Assembly (NCBI RefSeq): GCF_003334255.1
Contig: NZ_QOWU01000139.1
Strand: one strand, 5' to 3'
From: Escherichia coli
GTDB lineage: Bacteria; Pseudomonadota; Gammaproteobacteria; Enterobacterales; Enterobacteriaceae
Length of the DNA stretch: 2,234 nt
Shown: in pieces, positions 447 to 477 of the stretch
Position numbering within the stretch: position 1 is the first letter of the stretch
Layout of the letters: the number at the start of each line of letters is the position of its first letter
Program-made: the position numbers and the translations under genes
The notes under the pieces: model-generated
Seen by the model: only the letters and a program-made list of their open reading frames with translations
What the model was told of the DNA's origin: nothing
Database searches by the model: none

Positions 447-477
447 CGCACAAAAAAACCGCTGGCGCGGTTGTGCG
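447..477 (-). terminator. Intrinsic-terminator-like hairpin with a U-tract, oriented for minus-strand transcription
   Basis: Inner stem AACCGC (457-462) / GCGGTT (467-472) with loop TGGC, flanked by an outer CGCAC (447-451) / GTGCG (473-477) pairing. On the minus strand the stem is followed by TTTTTTTG (plus-strand A-tract 452-458). The stem is short at 4 GC pairs plus 2 AU pairs. Confidence 0.35.

Follow-up and report, generated by a model that had tools for sequence, protein, structure and literature searches.

A terminator-like hairpin in a predicted C4/CI-type immunity cassette of a P88-like Escherichia coli prophage

The Salmonella prophage Gifsy-1, the satellite P4 and the phage P1 possess RNA switches in which a leader with target sites, an antisense RNA of the C4/CI type and a gene of the antirepressor type follow one another. 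This report deals with a hairpin followed by a U-run on the minus strand, at positions 447-477 of a stretch of 2,234 nucleotides (nt) of Escherichia coli DNA (RefSeq assembly GCF_003334255.1, contig NZ_QOWU01000139.1; the whole stretch is called the window hereafter). The hairpin is very probably a Rho-independent terminator (an attenuator) with which an IsrK/seqA-like leader RNA ends, and this RNA would open an immunity cassette of the P1 c4/P4 CI type in a P88-like prophage. The mechanism has already been described for Gifsy-1, P4 and P1, and the window is an ordinary new copy of a described element, of modest biological value. Recognising the cassette, however, corrects the reading of the locus: a gene for a protein of 73 amino acids (aa), which had looked like a free-standing gene with a simple promoter of its own, would be the cargo of an antisense-RNA switch.

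The antisense mechanism of the P1 c4 RNA is said to have been worked out by Citron and Schuster in 1990, and the P4 CI RNA was reportedly found by Sabbattini et al. in 1995 to pair with sites flanking itself on both sides. P4 immunity acts mainly by CI-dependent premature termination, which is coupled to translation of the nested eta and kil genes. The epsilon protein of P4 is, reportedly from the work of Liu, Renberg and Haggard-Ljungquist in 1997-1998, an antirepressor which binds the C repressor of P2. Pairing of the P4 CI/C4 RNA with sites on both its sides is also summarized in later papers (PMC4825925, PMC10111431), and IsrK and C4 are regarded as structural homologues of the seqA and CI RNAs of P4 (PMC3632133; PMC10111431). 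IsrK of Gifsy-1 stops at a Rho-independent terminator, beyond which part of the transcripts continue as the antirepressor mRNA (Hershko-Shalev et al. 2016, PMC4825925); deletion of the isrK promoter abolishes the downstream transcription (280 versus 3 Miller units). The long RNA is translationally silent, and the short IsrK given in trans raises its translation more than 100-fold; this trans action, Hfq binding and partial read-through have been demonstrated there (PMC4825925). In addition, a P4-like alternative has been raised for Gifsy-1, namely that STnc1160, an RNA at the C4 position, modulates the IsrK terminator (PMC4825925).

The hairpin and the leader RNA that it ends

The minus-strand RNA from 477 to 447 reads CGCACAACCGCGCCAGCGGUUUUUUUGUGCG. 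Its inner stem-loop is GC-rich, has 6 base pairs (bp) and folds at -8.4 kcal/mol (z = -3.05 versus shuffles), and it is directly followed on the transcribed strand by seven U residues, the first two of which are able to pair within the stem; a G+C-rich stem-loop with at least six U after it, the mark of an intrinsic terminator, is thus present. The full interval of 31 nt folds at -15.2 kcal/mol (z = -3.8), and this higher stability arises because CGCACAA (477->471) pairs with UUGUGCG (453->447) across a U5 bulge. The short inner stem suggests a leaky site.

Might the structure be a chance hairpin next to a chance T-run, or a terminator of plus-strand or bidirectional transcription? Generic terminator patterns are common in this DNA, a generic scan of the window giving 8 matches against 3.1 +/- 1.8 expected from shuffles, which alone is not significant. 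However, when a strict rule is applied (stem of at least 6 bp with at least 4 G-C pairs, loop of 3-8 and six or more T in a row no further than 2 nt from the stem), the hairpin at 472->457 is the sole site in the window, both strands considered; such a site turns up in only 14 of 2000 dinucleotide-preserving shuffles. Moreover, the hairpin belongs to an RNA family match with E = 6.5e-13, and compensatory changes of its stem occur among 45 distinct sequences. Read on the plus strand, the hairpin runs into CUUUGCUAG instead of a U-run; it is not bidirectional for this reason, and a plus-strand terminator was likewise rejected. Chance or plus-strand use is consequently an extremely improbable explanation.

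The family in question is isrK. The Rfam model isrK (RF01394) matches the minus strand at 526->452 with 64.3 bits against a gathering score of 50, over its full length (model positions 1-77 of 77), and the hairpin and U-run at 472->452 are exactly the terminal hairpin and U-tail of the model, with the pairs conserved as described below. The leader RNA is made up of hairpin 1 (526->507), hairpin 2 (506->491), a single-stranded linker and the terminator. A terminator-like hairpin with a U-tract for the minus strand had been proposed at this place from the letters of the window, with its folding energy as a suggested check; the energies given above, the strict scan, the isrK match and the conservation of the stem all bear this out. 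The further claim that it is the first such structure past the DUF4406 operon holds insofar as it is the first convincing one, but a weaker minus-strand hairpin at 635->618 (CGCCGCTATCCCTCGGCG followed by CATTCCATTT; 5 bp, loop of 8, poor T-tail) lies nearer to the DUF4406 gene. This weaker hairpin is antisense to the leader of a plus-strand membrane-protein gene and is probably a product of chance.

A promoter-like site precedes the leader (Table 1), and its -10 hexamer, TACATT, ends 7 nt ahead of the first base of the isrK model, with a predicted start near 526. Hexamers with the same spacing from the first isrK base are found in 11 other phage loci, TTGATT/TACACT, TTGACT/TATATT and TTGACG/TAAAGT among them, so that by sequence scan the position of the candidate promoter 562->533 is conserved in 12 loci. 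In addition, isrK is followed by C4, both at gathering threshold and with a gap of 24-35 nt, in 11 of the 11 phage loci fetched, which include three further P88-like phages, Stx-converting phages, mEp460, ST64B, PA2, cdtI and PhiR46_1.

Across 45 distinct terminator regions, the five pairs of the inner stem are standard in 99.6% of cells. Two of the five are compensatory, switching between A-U and C-G and between G-C and A-U, and the CGC/GCG core is invariant. The extended outer helix, which encloses the terminator hairpin and the U5 bulge, has a 5' arm of 7-8 nt directly after the target site b1 (see below) and a 3' arm which consists of the last U residues and 5-7 nt past the U-run. Since the helix swallows the U-run and its 3' arm lies past it, formation is possible only in read-through RNA. 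The arms differ among phages and co-vary, the pairs observed including GCGCACAA/UUGUGCG, GCGCAUAA/UUAUGCG, GCGUACAA/UUGUACGC, GGCGAUA/UAUCGUC and GCGAUACA/UGUAUCG, together with GCGACA/UGUCGC in P4 and CGACA/UGUCG in Gifsy-1. MAFFT shifted the two geometric classes of the helix by two columns against each other, which makes the alignment value of 72.7% paired an underestimate, and an alignment-free test of cognate against permuted arms was used instead. By duplex energy, cognate arms gave -7.3 kcal/mol versus -5.4 +/- 0.3 for permuted arms, and none of 10000 permutations was as low; with one representative per arm type the values were -6.8 versus -5.1 kcal/mol, again with 0 of 10000 permutations as low, although relatedness of the sequences inflates both tests. 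The outer helix is frequent, not universal: P4 and Gifsy-1 both have it, but in an ST64B-like class it is weak. When the read-through RNA is folded by prediction, the outer helix caps a long helix formed in cis, and it could serve a function of its own, for instance as a processing site or as a stabiliser of the cis-paired inactive fold.

The C4 RNA, its target sites, the cargo and the proposed switch

The C4 RNA starts 35 nt downstream of the terminator. The Rfam model C4 (RF01695) matches at 416->329 on the minus strand, over its full length, with 82.8 bits against a gathering score of 45 (E = 3.2e-16), and the predicted fold has -47.7 kcal/mol (z = -4.8). Excision of C4 from its precursor, by RNase P at the 5' end, and repression in trans are marks of this class of cassette, and the 3' end of the C4 of the window, ...GCCACCCAC, resembles a tRNA-like ACCA context. 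Two segments within C4, a' and b', are complementary to target sites on either side, a1 and b1 in the leader and a2 and b2 in front of the 73-aa gene (Table 1). The downstream site b2 lies over the ribosome-binding site, the Shine-Dalgarno sequence AAGAGG (285->280) being placed 7 nt ahead of the ATG (272->270). The locus therefore has the features of the C4/CI cassettes of Rfam clan CL00128: a match to the C4 model, two segments complementary to upstream and downstream targets, a downstream target over the ribosome-binding site, and a cargo for antirepression or derepression, the last assigned by homology.

Table 1. Features of the window and of the prophage around it (positions of the window; sites as read on the strand given)
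Feature	Position	Strand	Remarks
Terminator-like stem-loop and U-run	452..472	minus	AACCGC-GCCA-GCGGUU at 472->457, then seven U at 458->452
Extended outer helix	447..477	minus	CGCACAA (477->471) and UUGUGCG (453->447); encloses terminator hairpin and U5 bulge
IsrK/seqA-like leader RNA, ~75 nt	452..526	minus	Rfam RF01394 isrK
Promoter-like site	533..562	minus	TTGCCA (562->557), 18-nt spacer, TACATT (538->533); consensus scan
a1 site UUUCGCAG	495..502	minus	loop of isrK hairpin 2; complementary to C4 a'
b1 site CUAGCAAAG	478..486	minus	linker directly 5' of terminator; complementary to C4 loop 2
C4/CI-type antisense RNA	329..416	minus	Rfam RF01695 C4; carries b' and a'
b' segment CUUUGCUAG	372->364	minus	C4 loop 2
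a' segment CUGCGAA	357->351	minus	within C4
a2 site UUUCGCAG	319..326	minus	just 3' of C4; co-varies with a1 and a'
b2 site CUAGCAAAG	291->283	minus	overlaps Shine-Dalgarno AAGAGG of 73-aa gene
73-aa epsilon-like derepression protein, putative antirepressor	51..272	minus	regulated cargo of cassette
DUF4406 gene	1087-1449	minus	prophage early operon; after two small open reading frames
First minus-strand genes of prophage, in window orientation		minus	Cox; small early genes; 3'-5' exonuclease; Dam methylase; two small open reading frames
Genes past 73-aa gene		minus	hypothetical gene, replication endonuclease, further genes
C-type repressor and integrase		opposite to early genes	closest-genome annotation

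The words at a1/a'/a2 and at b1/b'/b2 vary among phages, and they always vary in concert (12 loci). Among viral contigs, 103 distinct modules were found by a pattern scan. In 86 of these, b1 is complementary to a C4 word, and a second copy of it, with one mismatch or none, lies no more than 25 nt from an ATG. Among the matching modules there are 26 different b-words, at least nine of them among modules that precede the P88-type MANRK... gene. While the modules agree elsewhere at more than 90% identity, the 9-nt b-words (478-486, 364-372 and 283-291) are hypervariable, and each change of a b-word is mirrored in the leader, the C4 loop and the ribosome-binding site, a pattern that looks like a diversifying immunity specificity. 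In the minimum-energy fold of the whole read-through RNA, the a1-b1 region pairs in cis with b'-a', around the extended terminator hairpin.

The product of the 73-aa gene matches Pfam PF25738 (Derepression, E = 2.2e-6) and PHROG phrog_3688 (E = 1e-31), is 34% identical over 50 aa to P4 epsilon by BLASTP (E = 1e-8) and is named 'derepression protein' in RefSeq; NCBIfam profiles gave no match to it. The gene is best accounted for by a supply of transcripts that read through the terminator and by control through the C4 antisense RNA where ribosomes bind.

A second reading frame overlaps the cargo. The AUG in the conserved 5' flank of C4, AAUUAUGG, at 412->410, opens a stop-free frame of 147 codons (2-412, minus strand) which spans the whole 73-aa gene out of frame and runs beyond the window, to about 5972 in the locus of the closest genome; in three other P88-like phages it has 148 codons. 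No Pfam family matches it (best i-E = 0.14). In lambdoid phages and P4, the AUG of the C4 5' flank opens a frame which enters the antirepressor in-frame, and by position this AUG matches the first AUG of Gifsy-1 orf45.

In the scheme proposed here, partial termination, processing of C4 from the read-through RNA and the direction of regulation are carried over from Gifsy-1, P4 and P1. RNA polymerase would begin near 526 from the cassette promoter 562->533 and transcribe the two hairpins with the target sites a1 and b1. At 472->452 it would either halt, with release of an RNA of about 75 nt, or read through into C4, a2 and b2 and the epsilon-like antirepressor gene. Segments a' and b' of C4 would then pair with a2 and b2, and translation of the antirepressor would be kept off because b2 covers the Shine-Dalgarno sequence. 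The targets a1 and b1 may be bound by the same segments too, in cis when they belong to the long RNA or in trans when they sit on the short one, so that the sites would compete for C4, and the ratio of short to long transcripts, set by a leaky terminator, would tune the switch. Transcripts arriving from the upstream early genes would meet the same terminator and be attenuated as a side effect, which would not be its defining role.

Two other roles for the hairpin, both of which start from the sequence-only reading, have to be weighed against this scheme. One is that the hairpin mainly insulates the 73-aa gene and C4 from upstream read-through, the gene being driven by a promoter just downstream (TTGCCA, 17-nt spacer, AATTAT; 439->411). 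The site is a promoter-like match of 9/12, P88-like relatives retain its -35 (TTGCCA or TCGCCA), and terminators ahead of toxic or regulatory genes are common. However, AATTAT is part of the conserved C4 5' flank (consensus uuuuAuGG), which is kept in lambdoid phages without a -35 at the right distance, and initiation about 7 nt downstream of AATTAT would delete the 5' strand of the closing stem of C4. Furthermore, the corresponding gene of Gifsy-1 is supplied by read-through, and downstream transcription was lost there on deletion of the isrK promoter (PMC4825925). With its -10 in the C4 flank and a -35 not conserved outside P88-like phages, the site 439->411 is doubtful as a promoter and unlikely to be the main driver of the 73-aa gene. 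The hairpin plausibly limits transcription into this gene, so that the insulator reading is partly right in effect, but the hairpin is no free-standing insulator and lies about 55-75 nt downstream of its own predicted start, as the 3' end of the isrK RNA; insulation as its main function is thus unlikely.

The other role is termination of the upstream early-gene block, from the Dam methylase to the DUF4406 gene, with transcripts running antisense through the membrane-protein gene. By geometry, transcripts from the DUF4406 gene would indeed cross the membrane-protein gene antisense ahead of the hairpin. The orientation is right, any polymerase from upstream must meet the site, and between the stop of the DUF4406 gene (1087) and 477 there is no convincing minus-strand terminator, only the weak hairpin at 635->618. 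On the other hand, genes on the same strand continue past the cassette, and a full stop would cut the replication endonuclease, which a P2-type phage needs, off the early promoter, while a stem of 6 bp at -8.4 kcal/mol points to leakiness. The hairpin also lies inside an Rfam-defined RNA with its own candidate promoter. In relatives which lack the plus-strand insert (see below), the upstream open reading frame (ORF) stops about 30 nt from the -35 of the cassette and the cassette is identical there, so the element goes with the cassette rather than with the genes upstream. Termination of the DUF4406 operon is therefore quite improbable as the defining role.

Several points weigh against the reading of the hairpin as the attenuator of an IsrK-C4 cassette. 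The predicted promoter 562->533 is only a 9/12 match to the consensus, and the start site, the 3' end and the fraction of read-through are predictions for this prophage. The Rfam model c4-a1b1 (RF03163) overlaps the 5' part of isrK weakly, with 19.9 bits against a gathering score of 46.7. Translational coupling in Gifsy-1 uses orf45, but its equivalent in the window has 147 codons and is out of frame with the 73-aa gene, which makes coupling of the Gifsy-1 type doubtful, and this step may differ. Finally, published models differ on the role of the short RNA, which activates translation in Gifsy-1, whereas seqA-CI pairing promotes termination in P4, and the sequence leaves both possible. The attenuator reading is carried by the structure of the hairpin, its family membership, the complementarities with their co-variation and the gene order.

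The prophage and its annotation

The window is part of the early operon of a P88-like (P2-family) E. coli prophage. When E. coli chromosomes were searched, the best match of the window was the chromosome of strain JNEC-KY204 (99.4% identity, full length), and the annotated surroundings in this closest genome are those of a P2-family prophage (Table 1). Matches in a phage database are P88-like phages (genus Xuanwuvirus, Peduoviridae), confined to positions 202-583 of the window with 82-92% identity; because they are so confined, the block 202-583 is taken as a conserved module within a mosaic background.

Of 5426 complete E. coli genomes, only 2 contain both the plus-strand gene for a membrane protein of 155 aa (659-1126; phrog_6315) and the remainder of the window, and in the majority of relatives 74% of the window is covered, as two pieces; this gene fits an inserted accessory gene for these reasons. 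Together with its upstream region (584-1126, plus strand) it resembles such an insertion. About 30 bp separate its TATAAT (592-597) from the -35 of the divergent candidate promoter of isrK, and the 3' end of the membrane-protein gene overlaps that of the convergent DUF4406 gene by 40 nt (1087-1126). A LexA box which could control the cassette, as for the tum gene of phage 186, was not found near it; the window has a single match with one mismatch, at 1154-1169, against 0.6 expected by chance.

In the RefSeq record of the closest E. coli genome nothing, RNA included, is annotated between the 73-aa gene and the membrane-protein gene. Public phage records place protein annotations over the isrK and/or C4 RNAs (locus L002, 3122-3382; L007 and L008, 895-2046; L009, 883-2040; L012, 835-1983), and the P4 record has a 'cI gene product' coding sequence (CDS) over the RNA (8168-8584). 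The overlaid CDSs are named 'similar to ash family protein' or, with a length of about 1150 nt, 'transcriptional regulator/antirepressor', and the long antirepressor CDSs probably have over-extended N-termini.

A wider proposal can be put forward tentatively. P88-like (Xuanwuvirus) phages may possess a complete P4-type RNA immunity cassette in their early operon, directly upstream of the replication endonuclease gene, and the leaky terminator and C4 might form a second, RNA-based layer of immunity which gates both an anti-C-repressor weapon and replication, with at least nine exchangeable specificities, this number being suggested because the b-words differ among modules otherwise more than 90% identical. 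This is possible rather than probable. If true, the satellite P4 and helper-type phages have exchanged epsilon together with the immunity module. A second-immunity module of the P4/P1 type and an epsilon homologue would stand beside a replication gene inside a helper-type phage of the P2 family, and the hypervariable target words, together with the location of the module, would bear on the trade of anti-repressor modules between satellites and helpers. A limited literature search found no paper describing the cassette in P88-like phages.

Comparison with Gifsy-1, P4 and P1

The isrK-orf45-anrP region of Gifsy-1 (isrK 34316->34240, C4 34214->34131, then the antirepressor gene and isrJ) shares with the window the same Rfam family, RF01394, and the order of a promoter (predicted in the window), two hairpins, a Rho-independent terminator, a C4-like RNA about 25-35 nt further on and a gene of the antirepressor type. 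The outer helix around the terminator is found in both, and the predicted cis fold of the window RNA matches the translationally inactive 'structure A' of Gifsy-1 (PMC4825925). The two differ in the host phage, which is a P2-family myovirus for the window and lambdoid for Gifsy-1, and in the cargo, which is the 73-aa epsilon-like protein in the former and the Bro/Ant-type AnrP in the latter. Moreover, isrJ follows the cassette in Gifsy-1 but not in the window locus, and the annotation of the 14-kb flanking locus examined contains no antiterminator gene of the AntQ type.

In gene order the window resembles P4 most. The P4 immunity region (PLE promoter, seqA, CI RNA, seqC, epsilon, alpha) gives the same two Rfam matches in the same order (isrK 8692->8615, C4 8507->8420), followed by epsilon, the "helper derepression protein", then orf151 and the alpha primase; the window locus likewise has a leader terminator, C4/CI, an epsilon-like gene, one gene and a replication gene, and the cassette lies directly upstream of the replication gene in both. 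However, the gap from the isrK terminator to CI/C4 is 107 nt in P4 and 35 nt in the window, the gene after the 73-aa gene showed no homology to P4 orf151 (E = 20), and the replication gene encodes a P2 gpA-type endonuclease in place of the alpha primase. In addition, b2 of the window lies directly on the Shine-Dalgarno sequence of the cargo, as in P1 and unlike the CI-dependent termination of P4.

The likeness to the immI region of P1/P7 (c4, icd, ant) comprises a1/b1, c4 with a' and b', a2/b2, the position of b2 over the ribosome-binding site and an antirepressor as cargo, as judged by complementarity and co-variation, although the P1-type a1b1 model fits the window weakly, as mentioned above. 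Furthermore, in lambdoid loci (L005, L007, L008, L009 and L012) the isrK-C4-antirepressor cassette is found in the early rightward operon, between a cII-like gene and the replication genes. With its placement in the P2-family prophage, a position just upstream of replication genes thus recurs across unrelated types of phage.

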